Source of the DNA: Rhodothermales bacterium
GTDB taxonomy: Bacteria > Bacteroidota > Rhodothermia > Rhodothermales > JANQRZ01
DNA length: 64,000 bases
Reading direction: 5' to 3'
Assembly (NCBI GenBank): GCA_965215165.1
Contig: CBDCCX010000006.1
Location: 3,417,097-3,481,096, forward strand
Made by a program: the position numbers and the translations under genes. Below are positions 3,429 to 13,426 of this stretch, piece by piece. The notes under the pieces were generated by a model that was given only the letters and a program-made list of their open reading frames with translations, was not told where the DNA came from and did not search any database. Position 1 is the first letter of the stretch. Every line of letters begins with the position of its first letter.

Positions 3429-5738
3429 CTAGGCCAGAGCGTTCTCGTGGCCCGAAGAGCCGCAGAAGAGGCACGCGCTCCGCGTGGCCCGCACCATCTC
3501 GGCGACGAAGTCCAGGTCCGGCCCGGCCCCGTCGCGCCGCAGGCCCATCACGTCGATGTCCGACTGCGGGGCCTGCGCTACGCAGTCTTCGAACGGCCCC
3601 ACCATCACCTCGGAGCGCGCCGCTTCGGGGATGCGGGCCAGGTCGCGCAGCTCGTTCAGGTGCTCCCACGCTGCCTGCGCCTCGCCCTCGTCGGGGATGG
3701 CCGTGATGAGGTTCAGCTCGGCGTCCCACGCCTTCGCCAGTCGGAGCGCCGTCAGGATGCCGAGGTTGAGGTCCGAGCGGTCGAGGTAGTCCTGCATCGA
3801 GACGCGCGCCGGCCGGGGGCGGACCCACAGGTTGACGACCTTGCTCATCCCCAGCCCCGCCTCTCCGTGGAGCGCCAGCAGCATCACGCCGACGTCGAGC
3901 CGCCGGGTCTCCTTGACGATGATCCGCAGCTCGTCGTGGCGCTCGGGGTGGTGCGGGAGGTTGAGGAAGAGCACGTTCGGCGCGAAGAACGCGCTCCGCA
4001 GCGCCTGCACGCCGGTCACGATGCCCGTCGTGAAGCCTACCGAGTCGATCACCGCGCTCGTGGTCAGCACGTCGTTCTTGCGGAGCGTCCGGGCGAGGCG
4101 CTCGATGCGCGGCGTGAGGTCGGCGACGGTCTCCGTCGTGGCGACCCCGAGGAGCTTGACCGAGCCCTCGGGCCGGCACACGTCGATCAGCAGGCGGAGC
4201 TCGCCGCGCAGCGTGGCCGGGTCGAGGACCGGGACCAAGAGGCTCGGCTTCCAGGCCCGGCTCGCGGTCATGTCGAGGGCGATCACCTTGCCGGCGGCCC
4301 ACTCGGCGAAGGCCGCGAAGATGCCGCTGCGGACGCTCCCCGTGCGGGGGGCCACGCCGCGCCAGGTGATCCAGAAGTAGATCCCCGCCACGACGGCCAC
4401 GGCCAGCAGCCCGACGACGGGGTTGACGATGAACATCGCGAAGACGCATCCGAGCGCGCCGAAGAGCGGGACCACGCGCGGCAGGTTGAAGGTCGGGCGG
4501 AAGCTCATCAGCCCGAGGCTCGCCTCGGCCAGCATCACCACGTTGATGACGGCGTAGGTGATCAGGAAGAACATCGTGATCATCGGGGCGATCACGTTGA
4601 GGTCGCGCAGGAGCAGCGCCGCTAGGACAATCACACCCGTGACGAGCATTGCGCGGCGCGGCTCGCCGCCCGTCGTCTTCGCCAGCCAACCGCCGGCGGG
4701 CACGAGTCCGTCCTTGCCGAGGGCCTGCATGATCCGCGGCGCGCCGACGAGCGAGGTCAGCGCCGAGGAGAACGTCGCCCCGAGCAGCCCGGCGAGCACC
4801 ACCGGCCCCCAGAGCGCCTTGTCGATCATCACGGTGTAGTTCGAGACCAGCTCCTCGGGCGTCGCGGCGCGCGCGGTCCACACGGCCAGGAGGACGTAGA
4901 TCACGAGCGAGACGCCGATCGCCGAGAGGGTCCCGAGCGGGATGCTCTTGCGCGGGTTCTTGAGCTCGCCCGACATGTTGGCCCCGGCCATGACGCCAGT
5001 TGCGGCCGGGAAGAAGACGGCGAAGACGAGCCAGAAGTTGGTCCCCCGGAACCCGTCCTCGGGCGCGCCGGGGTAGCTCCCCCAATACTGAATCTCGCCG
5101 ACGCCACGGAGAAAGTCCGGCGCGGCGAAGATCGAGACGAGCGAGAGCGCGATCACGGCCATCACCGCGTACTGAATCTTGAACGCGAGGCTCGCCGAGA
5201 GGTAGGCGATCCCGAAGACGACGGCGAAGATCGCGAGGTCCACGACGAGCGCCGGGTGGTCCGGGAAGATCCAGGTCCAGCCCTCCCGGAAGCCGAAGAC
5301 GTACATCGCCACCGCCAGGCCTTGGGAGAGGTAGAGCGGGACGCCGACCGACCCGCCGATCTCGAACCCGAGCGACTTCGAGATGATCGCGTACGGCCCG
5401 CCCGCCCCGAGCCGGGTGTTGGTGGCGATCGACGAGAGCGACAGCCCGGTGCACAGCGTGATGCCGTTTGCGAGCGCGATGATGAGCAGCCCCCCGAGCA
5501 GCCCGGCGTTGCCGACCACCCACCCGAGGCGGAGGTACATGATCACCCCGAGGATCGTCAGCAGCGTCGGGGTGAAGACGCCGGCGAAGGTGCCGAAGAG
5601 CTTCGGGCCCTTCGGGAGCACGATGCCGCCCTCGCCGCCTGGCGGGTCGAGCTCGGTCGAGGGGTCGCCGTCGGTGGGCACAGCGCCTATCGGCGGAGGG
5701 GCGTCGGCGGGGACGCGGGGGGCGTCGGGGTCAGGCAT
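3429..5738 (-). CDS. Cation-chloride cotransporter (SLC12-like) APC family transporter
   Basis: FGTFAGVFTPTLLTILGVIMYLRLGWVVG and FFPAATGVMAGANMSGELKNPRKSIPLGT signatures, ~12 TM plus large cytoplasmic C-terminal domain. Confidence 0.85.
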   Translation of the reverse strand: MPDPDAPRVPADAPPPIGAVPTDGDPSTELDPPGGEGGIVLPKGPKLFGTFAGVFTPTLLTILGVIMYLRLGWVVGNAGLLGGLLIIALANGITLCTGLSLSSIATNTRLGAGGPYAIISKSLGFEIGGSVGVPLYLSQGLAVAMYVFGFREGWTWIFPDHPALVVDLAIFAVVFGIAYLSASLAFKIQYAVMAVIALSLVSIFAAPDFLRGVGEIQYWGSYPGAPEDGFRGTNFWLVFAVFFPAATGVMAGANMSGELKNPRKSIPLGTLSAIGVSLVIYVLLAVWTARAATPEELVSNYTVMIDKALWGPVVLAGLLGATFSSALTSLVGAPRIMQALGKDGLVPAGGWLAKTTGGEPRRAMLVTGVIVLAALLLRDLNVIAPMITMFFLITYAVINVVMLAEASLGLMSFRPTFNLPRVVPLFGALGCVFAMFIVNPVVGLLAVAVVAGIYFWITWRGVAPRTGSVRSGIFAAFAEWAAGKVIALDMTASRAWKPSLLVPVLDPATLRGELRLLIDVCRPEGSVKLLGVATTETVADLTPRIERLARTLRKNDVLTTSAVIDSVGFTTGIVTGVQALRSAFFAPNVLFLNLPHHPERHDELRIIVKETRRLDVGVMLLALHGEAGLGMSKVVNLWVRPRPARVSMQDYLDRSDLNLGILTALRLAKAWDAELNLITAIPDEGEAQAAWEHLNELRDLARIPEAARSEVMVGPFEDCVAQAPQSDIDVMGLRRDGAGPDLDFVAEMVRATRSACLFCGSSGHENALA

Positions 5739-5770
5739 CGGTCACGGGATCGTCTTACGAATCACGGCGC

Positions 5771-6889
5771 TCAGCCGCCGCCCGTCGTATCGGCGGGGCT
5801 TGCTTGCCGCAGGTGCTGAAGCTCCTCGTCGATGAGCTCGCGGAGTTGCCGGCGCAGCACCTCCCGATCCGTCGCCGGGGCAGGAGCCGCCCGGTAGCCC
5901 TCGGCCGCCTCGGGGTTGAGCACGATGAACTCCACGCGGCGGTTGAGCGTGCGGGTCGTCGGGTTCGTGTTGGGCACGATGGGCTGGCTCTCGCCGTAGC
6001 CGTGTGCCTCGATGCGCGCCGGGCCGAGCGTCGGAAAGGCGCGGAGGAGATATTCGCGCACGGCCTCCGCGCGGCGCTGCGAGAGCTGGAGGTTGTAGGC
6101 CTCCGAGCCGATGTCGTCGGTATAGCCGGCGATGGCGATGAACAGGTCGGGGTAGCGCGTGAGCACCTCGCCCACGACGTCGAGCGTCCGCTGGGCCGAG
6201 GGCAGGAGGACCGACCGGTCGAACTCGAAGTTGACCGTGGTGGTGCGGAAGAGGCCGGTCTCGAGGATGGCGCGCTCGACCTCCTCGACCGTCGCCGGGC
6301 CGGCGGACACGCCGAGGCTGGGGGTGCCACCGGTGGGCAGGGATGGAGTCGGGGCCAGGCCCTGCGCCCCTCGCTGCTGAGGAAGCACGAACGTGCCGGG
6401 GGCTTGACCCGACGGTAGGACGTAGCTCGGGCTCCCGCTCGGCGCAGCGTAGGAGGACCGGCCACGGTCGGCTAGGAGGGGGATGAGCTGGCCGAGCTTG
6501 CTGTCGAGGTCCCGGCGCAGCGCGAGCTCCATGCGGAGGAGGTCCACGCGGCTGAGCGGTTCGCCGTCCGCCGCCGCCTCGCGCAGCAGGTCCTCCTCGG
6601 TCAGGTCCTCCGGCAGGGCATCCGACGTGGACCGGCGCGTGCCGGGGCGCGAGCGGATACGAACGCCGCCGGGTTTGCCGGAGCGGAAGTAGAAAACCCC
6701 ACGCCCGTTCGGGAGCGGGACGGTCGTCACCCGGTCGGACAGCCCCACGGGGTAGAGCACGTCGGGCGCGGTCGTCGTGGTCTGCGCCGCGCTGGAGTCG
6801 GGCGGTGCAGTCTGAGCGCGTGCCGTGTTCGTGAGGCCAGGAGCGGCGAGCAGCGCGAGGAGGAGCCAGGGAAGAAGGCGTCGCATCAT
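5771..6889 (-). CDS. Secreted OmpA-like peptidoglycan-binding domain protein
   Basis: Signal peptide (ARA-Q); VNFEFDRS, IAGYTDDIGSEAYNLQLSQRRA, NRRVEF OmpA_C motifs. Confidence 0.9.
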   Translation of the reverse strand: MMRRLLPWLLLALLAAPGLTNTARAQTAPPDSSAAQTTTTAPDVLYPVGLSDRVTTVPLPNGRGVFYFRSGKPGGVRIRSRPGTRRSTSDALPEDLTEEDLLREAAADGEPLSRVDLLRMELALRRDLDSKLGQLIPLLADRGRSSYAAPSGSPSYVLPSGQAPGTFVLPQQRGAQGLAPTPSLPTGGTPSLGVSAGPATVEEVERAILETGLFRTTTVNFEFDRSVLLPSAQRTLDVVGEVLTRYPDLFIAIAGYTDDIGSEAYNLQLSQRRAEAVREYLLRAFPTLGPARIEAHGYGESQPIVPNTNPTTRTLNRRVEFIVLNPEAAEGYRAAPAPATDREVLRRQLRELIDEELQHLRQASPADTTGGG

Positions 6890-7020
6890 GTCAGGAACGG
6901 TCGAGGTCCGGCGGTGGGATAGGACGGCGTGCTCGGCGGCCGGGTGGGCCCCGGACCGCCGAGCGGTGTCGCCGCGCCTCCTGAGTGAGCCTCCGGTGTG
7001 GGGCGGCTCACGGGAGTGGC

Positions 7021-9420
7021 CTACCGGAAGAGGAAGCGGTAGCCGGCGATGAGCCGGTTGAAGTCCCCGAAGCTGGCGGTCTGGAACTCGGTGAAGACGC
7101 GGTTCCGGCCGACGGTGTACTCGGTGCCGATCACGAGGTTGATCGTGAGCCTGGAGCCGGGCAGGTCGTCTTCCTCGTCGTCCCCATCGTCGCTGGAGCC
7201 GCTGTCGTTGAAGCCGAGAATACCGAGGCCGAGACCGGCATACGGAGCGAAGTCGACGTTCGGGCTGGGGAGCGGGAAGGCCGCGTTCACGTTGAGCGCG
7301 AACGAGCGCTCCCCGCCGAAGCCGAGCGTGAACTCGGGGTAGTAGCGGAGGGTGCTGGCCCCGCCGGGGCGGTAGTCCGCGCGAAGGCCGAAGACCGCCT
7401 GGGTCGCTCCCGAGCCGAAGCCGAAGCCCACCACGGGGTAGGCCGCCACGAAGCCGCCGGGCGTCGCGTTGACGACGGCCGACGTCGTGGAGACGACCTC
7501 GCCCTCCGGCGTCACCGCGACGACGTTCGGCTGCGCGGACTGCGACGGCACGACGATGGGCTGGTTGTTCTGCCGAGCCGTGTTCTGCTGGATGATCAGG
7601 TCGCGCAGGTCGTCGATCTCGTCGCTGAGGCGGTCCTCGATGCGGCGTTCCAAGAGCTGCATTTCGGTAGCCGACACGTCGCCGCCGCTCTCCGCGTTGA
7701 GCTGGCGCAGCAGGCGCTCCTCGACGCGGCGCTCGATCTCGGCCACGTCCTCGGTGGTGGCGGCGTCGCCCTGAGCCGCGAGCGACTCGCGCAGCGTCTC
7801 GCGGACGATCTCGCGGAGGTCGGTCTCGGTCGCAGCCCCGCCGCTTGCGGCAGCGGCCACGTCCTCGCCGTCGTAGACGGACTCGATCTGGACCCCGCCG
7901 GGGTCGCCGTAGCGGACGTAGAGCTCGCCCTGCTCGGGGAGCGGGACGGTCACGATGCGGTCGCCCTGCGCGGTGCGGACCTCGCGGCCTACGACGACCG
8001 GCACCCCGGCCGTACCGCCGCCGGTCACGAGGCCGGCACGCCGCTGCTCGGTGGTGAGGCGGGCGACAGCGAGCGAATCGCCCTCGGCCTGCGCTCGGGC
8101 GATCTCGGCTGCGAGCTCGGCCTCGGCGGCCGCGCGTTCGGCCGCGATCTGGCGTTCGAGCTCGGCCTGGGTCACGACCGGGATCGGGGCCGTGACGTCG
8201 CCGCCGAGGCCGAAGGAGACCCCGGCACGGTACTGCGGACTGAGGAAGACGTCCTCGGTCTGGCTGATGTCGCCCTCGTCCTGGGTGCTCATCAGCAGGC
8301 CGCGGACCTCACCGTGGAGCCGGAGCCGGTCGCCGAGCGGGAGTTCGAGGCCGCCGCCGCCGAGCGCGAAGGGCCGGTCCTCGGAGCGCGCGGCGAAGGG
8401 TCCGCCGCCATCGGCCTCGTTGTAGTCGCTGAGCACGTCGAGGTAGCCGGCCCCGAAGGTCAGGAACGGGACGATGCCCTGGCCCGAGGCAAGCCGGAGC
8501 TTGGCGTCGCCGCCGTACATCTGGATCGGCTCGAAGTCCGTCGGGTCGTCGGTGTCCACGCCGCGCGCGAAGAAGCCCCGCAGCCCGACGAGCGGCCCGA
8601 GGTTGACGCCGACCTCGGCCCCGACGAACGACTGGTCGCGGTAGGTGAAGGCATCGTTGAAGTTGACGCGGCTGTAGAACGGCTCGATCTGGAGGCTCAC
8701 GCCGCGCAGCCCGTCCGAGAACTGGTCGAGGAAGGCGCGGTCCACGTCGGAGAGCTCGCCCGGCCGCCGGCCGCCGAGGTAGAGCTGGAGCGCCGCGCGG
8801 AACGAGATGTTGTGGACGAGGGTCTGGTTGAAGTCGTCGAGGGTGAGGTTCGTCTCGGCGAGGTCGCCCGGGGTGAAGAACGTCGTGCCGGGGTTGTAGC
8901 GGTAGGCGAGGTCCTCAGCCTGGAGCGTCAGCGTGTAGCGGTCGGCGAGCGAGACCTGGAGGCCGGCCCCGCCGGTGAGGTAGATGTTGCGGGTCGGCTC
9001 CTTGTCCTCGACGTCGAAGCGGATGAGGCCGGCCCCGGCGGTGAGGAACGGGATGAGCGAGCCGCTCCCGAGGTTCAGCTTGAGCTCGCCGCCGTAGCGC
9101 TGGAGGTCTACCCCGCGCGGGTCGAGCGAGGTCAGCATCGAGTCGAGCTCGGCGTCCTCGATCCCGGAGAAGTCCGAGAAGTCCGTCTCGAAGTCGGAGC
9201 CGAAGAGGTAGAGCCCAGTGAGCTCGACGTACTCGCCGAAGCTGAGCCCGACGCCCCCGCCGTAGAGGAAGCCGTCGTCGAGGGCGGCGTCGCCGTCCCA
9301 CCGCACGTAGCTGCCGGACGGGACGAGGCGGTAGCCGACGCCGGAGACCTGGGCCGCTGCATCGGCAGCGAGCAGGCTCAGGCAGGCAGCCACGAGAGGG
9401 AGGAGGCGGAGGTGTTTCAT
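7021..9420 (-). CDS. Multi-domain outer membrane beta-barrel protein (three OmpA/OmpW-like barrels with coiled-coil linker)
   Basis: Signal peptide AAA-Q; two tandem repeats of amphipathic beta strands (IPFLTAGAG / VPFLTFGAG), helical charged linker, third barrel ending AGYRFLFR. Confidence 0.7.
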   Translation of the reverse strand: MKHLRLLPLVAACLSLLAADAAAQVSGVGYRLVPSGSYVRWDGDAALDDGFLYGGGVGLSFGEYVELTGLYLFGSDFETDFSDFSGIEDAELDSMLTSLDPRGVDLQRYGGELKLNLGSGSLIPFLTAGAGLIRFDVEDKEPTRNIYLTGGAGLQVSLADRYTLTLQAEDLAYRYNPGTTFFTPGDLAETNLTLDDFNQTLVHNISFRAALQLYLGGRRPGELSDVDRAFLDQFSDGLRGVSLQIEPFYSRVNFNDAFTYRDQSFVGAEVGVNLGPLVGLRGFFARGVDTDDPTDFEPIQMYGGDAKLRLASGQGIVPFLTFGAGYLDVLSDYNEADGGGPFAARSEDRPFALGGGGLELPLGDRLRLHGEVRGLLMSTQDEGDISQTEDVFLSPQYRAGVSFGLGGDVTAPIPVVTQAELERQIAAERAAAEAELAAEIARAQAEGDSLAVARLTTEQRRAGLVTGGGTAGVPVVVGREVRTAQGDRIVTVPLPEQGELYVRYGDPGGVQIESVYDGEDVAAAASGGAATETDLREIVRETLRESLAAQGDAATTEDVAEIERRVEERLLRQLNAESGGDVSATEMQLLERRIEDRLSDEIDDLRDLIIQQNTARQNNQPIVVPSQSAQPNVVAVTPEGEVVSTTSAVVNATPGGFVAAYPVVGFGFGSGATQAVFGLRADYRPGGASTLRYYPEFTLGFGGERSFALNVNAAFPLPSPNVDFAPYAGLGLGILGFNDSGSSDDGDDEEDDLPGSRLTINLVIGTEYTVGRNRVFTEFQTASFGDFNRLIAGYRFLFR

Positions 9421-9547
9421 CGGAGGCGGGAGTTCAGATTGGAGAGGTGGGGCCGGAGGGCGCAGGCGTACTCCACCCGTGCGGCGCTCGGCGGCCGTCG
9501 AAGAGAAGGGACGAAACCGTACTGGTCGGGGAACGGAGAGGGCCGCG

Positions 9548-10078
9548 TTACTCGGTGCGGCGCACGAGGCGGATCGTCAGCGTGCCCCCGACCGCGTTCA
9601 GGTCTTCGTACTCGACGGGATCGAAGGCTTCGAGGTCGACGGTCCGCTCTCCCTCGAAGAGGAGGACACCGTCGCCGTCGCGCTCGAACGGGATGGTGTT
9701 GCTGAGCAGGAGGCTGGCGAGCCGGTCCTCGGCGTTGGCGAACGTCAGCCGGAGCTCGGCGGCCGTCACCGTGAAGGTGCCCGAGATCCGGTCCGACGGG
9801 GCATTCTCGAACTTGTAGCGGAGGTCGGCCTCGCCGCTGCCGAACAGCTCGACGAACGTGTTGGCCGCCACGAGGGTGTCGAGCACGTTCGCGTCGGCGA
9901 TCCCCCCGGCGTTCGGGTCGAAGGAGAACTCGGTGAAGTCGTAGATCCCCTCGACGTCCTCTGGGGAGGGCGGATCGACGGGGTCCGAGGAGTCGCAGCC
10001 GACGGTGCCGGCGAGCAGCACCGCTGCGGTAACGCCGAGGAGCGCGGATCGGAAGGGAAGTGTGAGCATGGCGGGCAT
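9548..10078 (-). CDS. Lipoprotein, lipocalin-like beta-rich
   Basis: Lipobox TVG-C followed by DSSD; EGIYDF / GTFTV beta motifs. Confidence 0.7.
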   Translation of the reverse strand: MPAMLTLPFRSALLGVTAAVLLAGTVGCDSSDPVDPPSPEDVEGIYDFTEFSFDPNAGGIADANVLDTLVAANTFVELFGSGEADLRYKFENAPSDRISGTFTVTAAELRLTFANAEDRLASLLLSNTIPFERDGDGVLLFEGERTVDLEAFDPVEYEDLNAVGGTLTIRLVRRTE

Positions 10079-10156
10079 AGGTCAGGGGCTGGGAGTGGGT
10101 TAGGGCTGCTCGGGCGACTGGTGGCACCGAGCCCTGCAATCTAAGCCACCGCGTGG

Positions 10157-10642
10157 CTACTGGACGCGGGTGGTCACGTGCGTCTCCATATCTTCCTCGC
10201 CCTCGGGAAAGTAGAGGTCCATGACGTCGAGGTTTACCTCAACTACCCGGAGGCCGGTCATCGTCTCGATCCGGTCGGCGACGTTGCGCCGCACGGCGTC
10301 GGCCACGGCGGGGATGCTCGCGCCGTACTCGGCGATGATCCGCACGTCCACGGCCGCCTCCCGCTGCCCGACCTCGACGCTGACCCCGAGGTCGTGCATG
10401 TCGCTCCGCGTGATCGACTTGGCGAAGGAGGTCACGGTCTGGCCCGTGTCGTAGGGCACCAAGCGGTGGACGCCCTCGATCTCGCGCACGGCGAGGCCGG
10501 CGATCTTGGCGACGACCTGGTTGTGGACGATCGTGCGCCCGTCGTCGCCGATGAGCACGGAGGCCCCGGCGGGGATGTCGATTTGGTCGTTGCGCGTGGT
10601 GACGCTCGTGGTGGAGTCGGACTTGTCGGTTTTGGTAGCCAT
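10157..10642 (-). CDS. Asp23/Gls24 family envelope stress protein
   Basis: VVAKIAGLAVREIEGVH, GVSVEVGQREAAVDV, EYG..IP, MTGLRVVEVN motifs; start at ATG 10642. Confidence 0.9.
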   Translation of the reverse strand: MATKTDKSDSTTSVTTRNDQIDIPAGASVLIGDDGRTIVHNQVVAKIAGLAVREIEGVHRLVPYDTGQTVTSFAKSITRSDMHDLGVSVEVGQREAAVDVRIIAEYGASIPAVADAVRRNVADRIETMTGLRVVEVNLDVMDLYFPEGEEDMETHVTTRVQ

Positions 10643-10686
10643 GACGGTCAGGGGGTAGGAGCCGGATGTCCGGCGGTGGGTGAGAA

Positions 10687-11004
10687 TCAGGAGAGGCGGC
10701 GGAGGGTGTCCCATGCTCCGGCGACATCGAGTCCGCCCGAGCGGGCCGCGTGGACGAGGCCGCCGAGCACCGCGCCGAGGCCGGCACAGAGCGCGACGAC
10801 GAGCGCCGCCCCGAGGCCGACGAGGATCAGCAGCACGCCGAAGACGAGGCCGACAGCGAGGCCCACGAGTGGCGCGACCGAGCGGGGCGGGGGTACGACC
10901 TGTGGCATGAGCGGCGGCCGGCCGGTCGGTGTCGGATCGGCGCGCGGCGCGTCGAGCGGGTGCGGACGCACGGCAGGGTCGGCAAAGGGGTCTCCGGGTC
11001 CCAT
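10687..11004 (-). CDS. Small integral membrane protein (DUF2273-like)
   Basis: Two Gly-rich TM helices (LVGLAVGLVFGVLLILVGLGAALVVALCAGLGAVLG); position between amaP and asp23. Confidence 0.65.
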   Translation of the reverse strand: MGPGDPFADPAVRPHPLDAPRADPTPTGRPPLMPQVVPPPRSVAPLVGLAVGLVFGVLLILVGLGAALVVALCAGLGAVLGGLVHAARSGGLDVAGAWDTLRRLS

Positions 11005-11015
11005 AGCGGGTTCGG

Positions 11016-11627
11016 TTAGTGGACGCGGGTGCGCGCGTCGAGGGCGAAGAGCTGCACGTCGAGGTTGGTGGCGACGACTGGCAGGCCGGTGTGGCGCTCG
11101 AGTGCCTCGGCGAGCAGCGGCTTGAGGCGGCTCGCCACGGCGGGAAGCTCGGCGTCGGGCGTGACCACCAAGCGGCAGGCGAGGTGCCAGCCGTCGCGCC
11201 GGAGCCGGAGCACCGGGGCCGCCTCGCGCACCGCCGGGTCGCGCTCGGCCGTGTGGACCACGAGCGCGTAGAGGCTCCGCATCGAGACCGTCACCTCGCC
11301 GCTGCCGTAGAGGCCGTTGCGGGTATGCCCACTCAGGCGCACGCGCCGGCTCCGCTCCTGCTGCTCGGCCGTCCGCGCGAGCGCCAGCCCGAGCAGCCCG
11401 ACCCCGGTGAGGAGCACACCGAGACCACCTGCCGCCCACAGCCACCGCTGCCGCAGGGGGTACTCCGTCAGGTCGAGCGCGAGCGCGAGGCCGCCGCCGC
11501 CGACGAGGCGGAGCGGCCCGAGCGCGTCGAGAGCATGGGCCAGCACCACGACGCCGCCTGCGACGAGGGCCAGCCCGACGAGGGCGACGACGAGACGCCA
11601 GAGCGTGTGGAGGAGGCGGAGGTTCAT
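11016..11627 (-). CDS. Alkaline shock response membrane anchor AmaP-like protein
   Basis: Two N-terminal TM helices, GEVTVSMRSL motif, Asp23-like C-terminus ending LERHTGLPVV. Confidence 0.7.
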   Translation of the reverse strand: MNLRLLHTLWRLVVALVGLALVAGGVVVLAHALDALGPLRLVGGGGLALALDLTEYPLRQRWLWAAGGLGVLLTGVGLLGLALARTAEQQERSRRVRLSGHTRNGLYGSGEVTVSMRSLYALVVHTAERDPAVREAAPVLRLRRDGWHLACRLVVTPDAELPAVASRLKPLLAEALERHTGLPVVATNLDVQLFALDARTRVH

Positions 11628-11739
11628 CGAGGTGGGGTGACCGGGCGAGGGAAGCCGCGCGAAGGCAAAGTGCAACAGCGCGGCGTGCCCGGCATGAGTC
11701 TAGGGTAAGTCCTGGATGAGGATCGCATTAAGGATCGAG

Positions 11740-12144
11740 TCAAAAGACAGTCTCTTCCGAATCGGTCACGTCCACGATGTGGAGCCGTAGGTCGAGCGGC
11801 GGGGCCTCGGGGAAGTGCGCCCACGCGGCGCGGAGCCGCTGATCGGCAGCGCGGAGCGTGGCCCGGAGCCGCTCCGTCAGCGCCGCCACCGTAAGCACCA
11901 GGCCCACCTCCGCCCGCACGCTCTCGCCGGGGCCGGCGGTGAGGGCGACGCCGACCACGGCCGGGCCGCGCCCCCGCGTCTGGAAGCGCGCCGAGGCCGA
12001 AAGCCCCGCGATGTCATGCCCGTCGAGCGCGGCGTGGCGGAGCGCGGCGGCCGCGAGCAGCCAGCCGTCCTCGGCCCCCAGCCCGCGCACCGGCGGGGCG
12101 TCCCGCAACACGGGCGCGCGGCGTATCGAGGGCTGCGCCGTCAC
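11740..12144 (-). CDS. Hypothetical protein, divergent Asp23-like
   Basis: GTG start overlapping upstream TGA (GTGA); C-terminal LDLRLHIVDV resembles Asp23 terminal strand. Confidence 0.5.
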   Translation of the reverse strand: MTAQPSIRRAPVLRDAPPVRGLGAEDGWLLAAAALRHAALDGHDIAGLSASARFQTRGRGPAVVGVALTAGPGESVRAEVGLVLTVAALTERLRATLRAADQRLRAAWAHFPEAPPLDLRLHIVDVTDSEETVF

Positions 12145-12644
12145 GAGGGGTGCGGGGGCTGTGTCGGCGAGGCCGGAGCCGCGCCCGTCGGGTCCACGAC
12201 GTCCACGACCTCGACCGTCACCGGGCCGGGTTCCAGCCCGAGGGTGTCTTGGAGCGCGGCCTCGATGCTCGCTCGGACGCGCTCGGCCAGGCCGAGCAGG
12301 TCTTCGCCGTAGCGCGCCACGATGCGGACCTCCAGCGCGGGGGCGGTTTGCCCGTCGAGCGTGACGAGTTCGGCGCGGCGCTCGGCCAGCCACCGCGCCG
12401 TCGCCGCCCCCGCCGCTGAGCCGAGCGGGGCTCCAAGCGCGACTCCCGCCGGCCCCGCCTGCGCGAAGCCCACGGCTCCCCCGATGAGGCCGCCGACGAG
12501 TGCGCCCCCCACCAAGCTCTGCGTGTCCATCACGCCCTGCACGTCGCCGGCCGCGACGGTTACGAGGTGGTCGAGCACGCCGGCCGATAGGCGGAGGTGT
12601 CCGCTCACCGAAGGCTGATCGAGAAGCATGTCGGGGTGGGTCAT
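12141..12644 (-). CDS. Asp23/Gls24 family protein with inserted glycine zipper
   Basis: GHLRLSAGVLDHLVTVAAGDVQGV and IVARYGEDL..TLGL..VTVEVVDV; ATGA coupling to upstream gene. Confidence 0.7.
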   Translation of the reverse strand: MTHPDMLLDQPSVSGHLRLSAGVLDHLVTVAAGDVQGVMDTQSLVGGALVGGLIGGAVGFAQAGPAGVALGAPLGSAAGAATARWLAERRAELVTLDGQTAPALEVRIVARYGEDLLGLAERVRASIEAALQDTLGLEPGPVTVEVVDVVDPTGAAPASPTQPPHPS

Positions 12645-13426
12645 CGGGGAGAGGTCGTCTGCGGCTGAGCGGCACCGGTGGGCGGCACGAGCCGGTAGCC
12701 GACGCCACGAACGGTTTGGATTACGCCAGCGAAGCCGAGAGCCCTGAGCTTCCGCCGGAGCGTGTAGACGTAGACGTCCACCGAGTTCGAGCCGGGGTCG
12801 AAGTCCAGCCCCCAGACCCGCTCGAGGACCTCGTCGCGGGAGCAGCATGCCCCGGCGTGGTCGAGGAAGTAGGCTAGCAGGTCGAACTCCTTGAGCGTCA
12901 GCTCGAGCCGGTGCCCGGCGACGGTGCAGGTGTGGGCGCGCCGGTCGAGCCGGATCGGCCCGGCGGCACCTGGTCCCTCGGCTGCGACCACCGGGGCTCC
13001 GGTGCGCGAGGCCGTGGGCGCGCTGCGGGCGGCGGTGCGGCGGTAGGCCACGACGAGGGCGCGGAGCAGGCCAGGCTGGACGGGCAGTCCGCACGCCGCG
13101 TCGGCCCCGGCGTCGAGCGCGGCCGCTTGATCGCTGGGGCCACCTTCGCAGAGCGCGATGAGCGGCCCGCCGACGGCCCGCGCCTGCGCCACAGCGTCAG
13201 GGGCTCCGCCGCTCGCTCCCCACCACAAGAGGACCGCGTCGAGACCGCCCGCCGGCGGCCGGCCGAGCGCGTCCACGCGGTGCGGAGCCGGGCACCACAC
13301 CTGCACGATGGCCAGGGCCTGCGCCCGCATCTCCGGGGCCGCCGCCACGGCGAGCCGCAACGGAGCCTCGTGAACCTCCGTTGTGGCAGGCCCGCCGGGG
13401 AGTCGGTAGAGTGCGGCCTGCGGCAT
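12641..13426 (-). CDS. OmpR/PhoB family regulator with degenerate receiver domain
   Basis: Intact wHTH (LTLKEFDLL, SNSVDVYVYTLRRKL, IQTVRGVGY); receiver lacks phospho-Asp and conserved Lys. Confidence 0.85.
   Translation of the reverse strand: MPQAALYRLPGGPATTEVHEAPLRLAVAAAPEMRAQALAIVQVWCPAPHRVDALGRPPAGGLDAVLLWWGASGGAPDAVAQARAVGGPLIALCEGGPSDQAAALDAGADAACGLPVQPGLLRALVVAYRRTAARSAPTASRTGAPVVAAEGPGAAGPIRLDRRAHTCTVAGHRLELTLKEFDLLAYFLDHAGACCSRDEVLERVWGLDFDPGSNSVDVYVYTLRRKLRALGFAGVIQTVRGVGYRLVPPTGAAQPQTTSPR

Follow-up and report, generated by a model that had tools for sequence, protein, structure and literature searches.

How the outer membrane might be fastened to the cell wall when the membrane-borne part and the wall-binding part are encoded by separate genes is the question raised by a locus of a Rhodothermales bacterium (assembly GCA_965215165.1, contig CBDCCX010000006.1). 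In the stretch of 64,000 nucleotides (nt) that was analysed, referred to below as the window, three co-directional open reading frames (ORFs) follow one another on the minus strand: the gene of a small lipoprotein of 176 amino acids (aa), here called lip176; the gene of a three-barrel outer-membrane protein of 799 aa (the barrel protein); and the gene of a barrel-less periplasmic protein of 372 aa with an OmpA_C domain (the partner). The original prediction, made from the DNA letters and the translated ORFs, had noted that the latter two proteins share a motif of about 28 residues followed by charged helices, and had read the pair as a candidate novel complex. The analysis described here makes it, on balance, somewhat probable that the trio ties the outer membrane to peptidoglycan as an OmpA-type tether in split form, in which the partner docks on an insert of the barrel protein.

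Both ORFs and both motif peptides were recovered exactly where they had been reported (residues 487-514 of the barrel protein and residues 52-80 of the partner). In a BLASTP comparison of the barrel protein with the partner, 35 of 94 aligned positions are identical (E value 1e-6), and the alignment spans the motif and the helical stretch that comes after it. When profiles were compared by hhalign (21 barrel-protein modules against 11 partner modules), the hairpin-like motif was matched over 35 columns with a probability of 96.0% and an E value of 4.3e-9. A helix unit, G-[VL]-[ST]-x-x-D-L-x-x-L-E-x-R-L, is found after a variable spacer in both proteins; its match, which pairs the helix of the partner with the last insert helix of the barrel protein, covers 26 columns (67.5%, E value 5e-5), the weaker score being as expected of charged helices. 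Thus, the motif is common to both proteins, as had been claimed, and the charged helices that were said to follow it in both do align, but weakly.

The motif is conserved. All orthologues of the barrel protein in two sets (21/21 and 39/39) contain its core, T-x-P-x-P-E-x-G-E-[LI]-Y-[VI]-R-[YF]-G, with positions P, G, E, R and G invariant in the orthologue alignment. A search of the organism's own genome with a 167-aa module query retrieved the barrel protein itself and the partner only. No Pfam or NCBIfam entry covers the motif, and profile searches of PDB sequences gave best E values of 0.28 for the module and 0.034 for the motif, with viral polymerases as chance matches; the earlier remark that the motif belongs to no named family therefore stands for these collections. 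With a motif profile of 38 columns, built from 28 copies of the motif, 204 proteins were retrieved at E ≤ 1e-3 from a collection of 1.84 billion representative proteins. Among the 150 listed, most fall into two groups, one of ~700-900 aa with the motif at ~430-610 and the other of ~290-430 aa with the motif mostly in the first ~110 residues. Pfam was run on 61 of these 150 proteins, that is, on those shorter than 700 aa (58, three fragments below 75 aa having been left aside) and on 3 long ones: 18 matched OmpA only, 10 OMP_b-brl only and 2 both, 3 were unrelated repeat proteins, and 28 matched no family. The OmpA-only proteins carry the motif near the N-terminus; many of the 28 family-less ones have the length and the motif position expected for fragments of barrel proteins.

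Barrels alone had been attributed to one protein of the pair and an OmpA_C domain alone to the other, and Pfam and AlphaFold2 (AF2) agree on this division. The barrel protein matches OMP_b-brl (PF13505) only, in three stretches (71.7 bits, cut-off 28.7), and no wall-binding domain was found in it by the Pfam scan. Its AF2 model, based on an alignment of 39 sequences and having a mean predicted local distance difference test (pLDDT) of 74.5, contains three separate 8-stranded barrels, the second and third of which are joined by a helical insert of ~250 aa; on this model, the possibility of one large barrel was rejected. Averaged over blocks of ten residues, pLDDT in the barrel regions ranges from 43 to 96. 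Most blocks of barrel 1 score 81-96 and most of those of barrels 2 and 3 exceed 69, but the loop at residues 740-754 falls below 50. The strands of barrel 1 comprise residues 28-40, 50-61, 65-79, 103-116, 122-137, 143-157, 162-175 and 200-214. Barrels of eight strands have both of their ends in the periplasm, as is established for OmpA and OmpX; the strand number being even in all three barrels, the insert must be periplasmic. The helices at residues 532-617 of the insert hold one or two units of the form '[LV][ST]xxDLxxLExR[LI]', each with a Gly/Ser/Thr cap, and at least one strict match to this pattern occurs in 28 of the 39 orthologues; the repetition of the unit points to an internal duplication of the module. 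Foldseek with the whole three-barrel model was uninformative, returning generic barrels from the PDB only (TM-scores 0.1-0.3). Nothing exceeded its cut-off in the NCBIfam scan, where TIGR04565 (OMP_myx_plus) reached 39.9 bits under a curated cut-off of 60, and an ESM Atlas search with residues 410-650 gave no usable match.

The partner begins with a cleavable leader ending in ARA/Q, contains no Cys, and lacks both a barrel and a lipid anchor. OmpA (PF00691) is its only Pfam match (73.2 bits, cut-off 27.2). In the AF2 model of the partner (56 sequences, mean pLDDT 72.2), the N-terminus, motif included, is disordered. Seven residues of the OmpA_C domain (G255, D258, N266, L269, S270, R273 and A274) do not vary among the 56/56 aligned partners, and two of them, D258 and R273, occupy positions known to contact the peptide stem of peptidoglycan in structures of the OmpA/Pal family. 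From this conservation we infer that the partner binds peptidoglycan by its C-terminal domain. The amphipathic helix that follows the OmpA_C domain is found in 9 of 15 aligned partners.

The copies of the motif in the two proteins differ in charge. Over the 12 residues after the motif, net charge is 0 to -4 in 38/38 barrel proteins (e.g., GGVQIES) and +1 to +5 in 29/29 motif-bearing partners (e.g., GGVRIRSR). The barrel-protein hairpin contains two conserved Glu residues and the partner hairpin none, and R79 of the basic stretch is invariant in 15/15 partners, hairpin-less ones included. The one feature that speaks for heteromeric docking through the shared module is the opposite charge of the two copies; that this module is itself the docking interface of the two proteins appears plausible, if somewhat short of probable. 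A complex prediction with residues 410-625 of the barrel protein and residues 40-145 of the partner gave a score of 0.00 in a run without controls and speaks neither for nor against binding.

The gene neighbourhood was compared among relatives. The barrel protein is present in 45 of 121 sampled genomes of the order, representing 31 of 66 genera, and a scan of GTDB species genomes yielded 173 relatives. The 76 loci that were kept come from Rubricoccaceae, Rubrivirga, Roseithermus, Salinibacter, Salinivenus, Balneolales, Cyclonatronaceae, an Eiseniibacteriota metagenome-assembled genome (MAG), Saprospiraceae, Chitinophagales, Cytophagales and Flavobacteriaceae. A complete barrel ORF is present in 68 of them (the other 8 being broken or cut by a contig end), with the motif in 41 and without it in 27. 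In 32 of the 38 motif-bearing loci that have at least 1 kb of downstream sequence, an OmpA_C gene starts on the same strand no more than 110 nt after the stop codon of the barrel gene, and many of these stops and starts abut or overlap by 1-4 nt; the count includes one locus, L072, that was assigned by eye and whose barrel gene is in pieces. Adjacency of the partner spans Rubricoccaceae, Roseithermus, Salinibacter, Salinivenus, Balneolales, Cyclonatronaceae and the Eiseniibacteriota MAG. Within the extended loci of the same order, the partner is immediately downstream in 14 of 20. A profile search and a check of gene pairing had been named among the ways to follow up the original prediction, and both bear it out as far as the pairing goes.

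The motif search and a follow-up search, with domains mapped by purpose-built profiles, also revealed proteins in which the parts found separately in the window are joined in one chain. Three of them (P0134, 1107 aa; P0154, 1179 aa; and P0174, 1068 aa, whose JGI database name is 'outer membrane protein OmpA-like peptidoglycan-associated protein') consist of two barrels, the motif, helices, a third barrel and, after a coiled coil, OmpA_C. The leaderless P0175 (630 aa) resembles the C-terminal part of a protein of this type. A different arrangement is seen in P0177-P0180 (~820 aa), which have two barrels, the motif, a helical region and OmpA_C but lack barrel 3. The C-terminal halves of P0177-P0180 are collinear with the partner profile when aligned to it, and the window partner is therefore in effect their C-terminal half. 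We regard the fusions as the strongest evidence that the window pair works together in a wall-related job. A phylum-wide search with P0177 matched 364 of 401 genomes; among the matches listed, all are partial (barrels or OmpA domains), and none spans barrels through OmpA_C in one frame.

We propose that the partner would be anchored to peptidoglycan through its OmpA_C domain and would dock non-covalently on the periplasmic insert of the barrel protein, with strands and/or helices of the basic module copy of the partner pairing with those of the acidic copy of the barrel protein. Such docking would resemble the way RmpM holds Neisseria porins to the wall. The pair could have originated by fission of a barrel-module-OmpA_C protein, or else the single chains by fusion, and the lipoprotein lip176 is a possible third subunit. 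A bolder form of the proposal, which we offer tentatively, is that the hairpin-plus-helix module constitutes a new periplasmic 'zipper', an acidic multibarrel copy and a basic OmpA_C copy meeting in a heteromeric stalk, possibly with the lipoprotein, and that it would serve as a dedicated modular tether of Rhodothermales and allies that has been repeatedly split and fused.

Several results weigh against the split tether. The full hairpin is present in only 10 of 32 adjacent partners of the unbiased locus set and in 7 of 15 partners of the orthologue alignment (a count of 31/56 is biased, 15 of those sequences having been picked from the motif search). Most partners being without it, the full hairpin is therefore not a universal docking element. 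What distant partners retain is a basic stretch ('G-V-x-R-V-R-x-R'), a 'V-x-V-P-x-P' strand that stands in a different order and, in most cases, the helix unit. A partner gene is missing next to six of the 38 motif-bearing barrel genes. When the partner-less genomes of the extended-locus set were searched whole, the motif was found once only, in the barrel protein, in 5/5; a motif-bearing partner is thus not required for the barrel protein to occur. The barrel protein was not found in four other species of the same genus (G018, G054, G092 and G103), and the cluster is therefore not essential. The motif is disordered in both monomer models, with pLDDT below 62 (below 50 in that of the barrel protein). 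Finally, the single-chain forms retain the motif without any need of docking, and what it primarily does may be different, for example to self-associate or to build a stalk. The split OmpA-like tether of the original prediction is thus supported in part, by synteny, by the periplasmic location of the modules, by the anchor-less partner and by the natural fusions; the hairpin counts do not support the shared module as its oligomerisation domain, and the assembly of a ring, which had been suggested along with it, was not borne out.

Some of these observations would be accounted for if the module were shared by descent only. The partner would then be a split-off C-terminal half that reaches the outer membrane otherwise or not at all, and the module would self-associate or act as a spacer independently in each protein, with no mutual binding. 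Single-chain relatives that keep the motif and need no partner, the full hairpin kept by just 10/32 partners and the barrel protein standing alone in 5/5 genomes tested all agree with such a history. What makes us consider it unlikely is that a barrel-less, anchor-less OmpA_C gene directly downstream in 32/38 loci, often overlapping, argues for joint function, that opposite charge of the copies is unexpected for independent self-association, and that the helix unit and the basic stretch persist in hairpin-less partners. Similarity by chance or low complexity can be dismissed with much greater assurance: although the motif is short (~30 aa) and its flanking helices are charged and repetitive, the hhalign E value, the presence of matches in two genes only of the organism's own genome, and a search of the 1.84 billion proteins that returned essentially the two architectures and the fusions effectively refute it.

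Alternatively, both motif copies might bind a common third component, lip176 or peptidoglycan, that holds the complex together. In all 16 aligned lip176 orthologues a hydrophobic leader precedes a Cys of the lipoprotein type ('..AC(D/Q)S..'), the strict lipobox regular expression being met by 13 of them. The protein matches no Pfam or NCBIfam family, and its ESM Atlas neighbours are small hypothetical lipoproteins with minor shares of Lipocalin_4 and NlpE_N, which is a lead only. Its gene precedes the barrel gene in 16 of 20 extended loci. Among motif-bearing loci that extend far enough upstream to show it, 31 of 39 have it at the head of the trio, and it was found in 0/27 loci whose barrel protein is without the motif. 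However, phylogeny confounds this association of lip176 with the motif, since every motif-less locus is of the Bacteroidota type (Saprospiraceae, Chitinophagales, Cytophagales, Flavobacteriaceae or Bacteroidota/Bacteroidia by record titles), and motif-bearing loci without lip176 exist (e.g., L070, L094, L097, L105, L108, L112 and L119), so that we find a common third component decidedly improbable. Still less probable in our view is that the barrel protein is mainly an adhesin, a channel or a surface-layer anchor and its OmpA_C neighbour generic, the tether being over-interpreted. Avidity or adhesion has been suggested for poly-8 proteins in the available part of Solan et al. (PMC8346858), and the cluster is dispensable within the genus, but OmpA_C fusions in at least two architectures are hard to explain without a wall-linking role, and the insert is periplasmic by topology.

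Table 1. Features of the locus and its flanks (positions in the window; residues refer to the encoded protein).
Feature	Position	Strand	Basis
lip176 (176-aa small lipoprotein gene, first of conserved trio)	9548-10078	-	ORF
799-aa three-barrel outer-membrane protein	7021-9420	-	ORF; PF13505; AF2 model
Barrel 1, residues 28-214, 8 strands	8779-9339	-	AF2, pLDDT mostly 81-96
Barrel 2, residues 241-405, 8 strands (241-252 to 391-405)	8206-8700	-	AF2
Two long helices opening the insert, residues 418-467	8020-8169	-	AF2 helices 418-445 and 449-467; pLDDT 77-92 over most of 420-459
Hairpin-like motif, acidic copy, residues 487-514	7879-7962	-	Orthologue alignments
Three amphipathic helices, residues 532-617	7570-7827	-	AF2 helices 532-549, 556-577 and 584-617
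Barrel 3, residues 656-797, 8 strands (656-669 to 787-797)	7030-7455	-	AF2
372-aa barrel-less periplasmic OmpA_C protein (partner)	5771-6889	-	ORF; PF00691; AF2 model
Hairpin-like motif, basic copy, residues 52-80, ends GGVRIRS-R	6650-6736	-	BLASTP, hhalign, motif profile
Partner helix with shared 'G[VL][ST]xxDLxxLExRL' unit, residues 114-142	6464-6550	-	AF2 pLDDT 84-93
Pro-rich disordered linker, residues 145-200	6290-6457	-	AF2 pLDDT 39-67, no secondary structure; length varies in alignments
OmpA_C peptidoglycan-binding domain, residues 201-325	5915-6289	-	Pfam 221-317; AF2 pLDDT mostly >88, down to 71 at 301-320
C-terminal amphipathic helix, residues 339-363	5801-5875	-	AF2 pLDDT up to 95
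Cation-chloride cotransporter-type permease gene (flank)	3429-5738		Pfam scan
Asp23-family gene (flank)	10157-10714		Pfam scan

The layout of the barrel protein has a precedent. A computational catalogue (Solan, Pereira, Lupas, Kolodny and Ben-Tal, PNAS 2021; PMC8346858) describes, in its available part, a poly-8 superfamily of 118 proteins from Bacteroidetes, with two or three 8-stranded barrels and an alpha-helical linker in one chain. The window protein has exactly such an 8-8-helical-8 arrangement, and relatives of it occur in Rhodothermales and Bacteroidota (Balneolales, Saprospiraceae, Cytophagales, Flavobacteriaceae). Judged by architecture, the barrel family is very probably already in that catalogue, whose available part mentions no function, hairpin motif, OmpA_C partner, lipoprotein neighbour or fused forms. 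A 2026 review (PMC13721041), likewise in the part available, cites multibarrel proteins only as an architectural curiosity and gives no function, motif, partner or fusions for them, and our literature search found no described function for the barrel family or the gene pair and no mention of the motif, the partner or the fusions. The complex that had been called novel is therefore so, as far as these texts go, in its motif, its partner and its putative function, but not in the combination of three barrels and a helical linker.

The closest functional precedent for the partner is RmpM (PIII) of Neisseria, the N-terminal part of which binds outer-membrane protein complexes, its OmpA-like domain binding peptidoglycan, and which is proposed to link outer-membrane proteins non-covalently to the wall; according to the portion of the source available (PMC4226279), it resembles the partner in being secreted and barrel-less, with no lipid anchor and with a short N-terminal segment, a linker and OmpA_C. 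The likeness is one of architecture, and RmpM, as far as the available portion goes, works with more than one ordinary porin and has no dedicated partner encoded next to it, whereas the window partner adjoins one dedicated three-barrel protein that has a paralogous copy of the docking-candidate module. Classical OmpA/OprF proteins unite an 8-stranded PF13505-type barrel and a PF00691 domain in one chain, as do P0134, P0154, P0174 and P0177-P0180; they differ from the window pair in having one barrel, one chain and a short Pro-rich hinge in place of three barrels, two polypeptides and a ~250-aa helical insert with the hairpin motif. OmpM of diderm Firmicutes and other Terrabacteria (PMC10628300, as available in part) likewise links a barrel to a wall-binding domain by an extended helical periplasmic stalk, but it combines an SLH domain and a porin barrel in one chain, and the window system has OmpA_C on a separate chain and small 8-stranded barrels. 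A tether of the OmpM type is excluded in the window, as no SLH domain was found in Pfam scans of the barrel protein and the partner at E ≤ 0.1. What is new here is most likely, on the sequence comparisons, an OmpA-type tether that is split, is multibarrel and has an unnamed paralogous periplasmic module.

Within the window, lip176 and the barrel gene are separated by 127 nt, and the barrel gene and the partner gene by 131 nt. Scanning of positions 5400-10900 revealed no promoter-like site and one terminator-like site, which is inside the partner gene and equals the chance expectation. Directly upstream of lip176, on the same strand, positions 10157-13100 hold the Asp23-family gene and small membrane-protein genes; the Asp23-family cluster also accompanies the trio in a sister-genus genome, G039, where the Asp23 protein is 71% identical and the gene adjacent. 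The whole block from 5745 to 13190 (partner, barrel protein, lip176 and Asp23 cluster) is collinear in G039 at 68-70% nt identity and has no DNA match in the same-genus genomes G018, G054 and G092; the Asp23 protein has no match in the three same-genus genomes searched, and same-genus genomes match the window only from ~13,720 onward (72-88% nt). By this comparison the cluster is variable within the genus, lost in others or gained here. On the other side of the block, the cotransporter-type gene shows 93% DNA and 97% protein identity to a gene in G054, a similarity that stops at ~5744, at the edge of the partner gene. The flanks of its G054 counterpart map to ~1.91 Mb of the window's own contig with 80-88% identity, which suggests that the cotransporter-type gene has recently moved.

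Outside the motif-bearing loci, the Bacteroidota relatives of the barrel protein (L068, L086, L087, L116, L120, L125; L107, L109, L110, L114, L118; L123, L126-L128) have no hairpin motif, no lip176 and a varied layout. Barrel proteins of Saprospiraceae are ~675-705 aa long, and the OmpA-domain protein encoded after them is longer, at 431-518 aa; those of Cytophagales have 943-1120 aa with a longer insert, and a divergently oriented OmpA-domain gene lies upstream in the Flavobacteriaceae-labelled loci L123 and L126-L128. Two loci have a broken look: the barrel ORF of L038 (G009) has 713 aa and stops before the third barrel, so that it appears broken or shortened, and the barrel gene of L072 is in three overlapping ORF pieces. 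These breaks could be sequencing errors or decay.

To our knowledge, multibarrel outer-membrane proteins have been discovered solely by computation, and tethers of the kind considered here are poorly known outside Proteobacteria and diderm Firmicutes. If the proposed split tether is true, it would provide the first function for any multibarrel outer-membrane protein and would supply a defined, testable docking module. The split and fused forms would then constitute a natural series for studying how a one-chain tether changes to a two-chain one.

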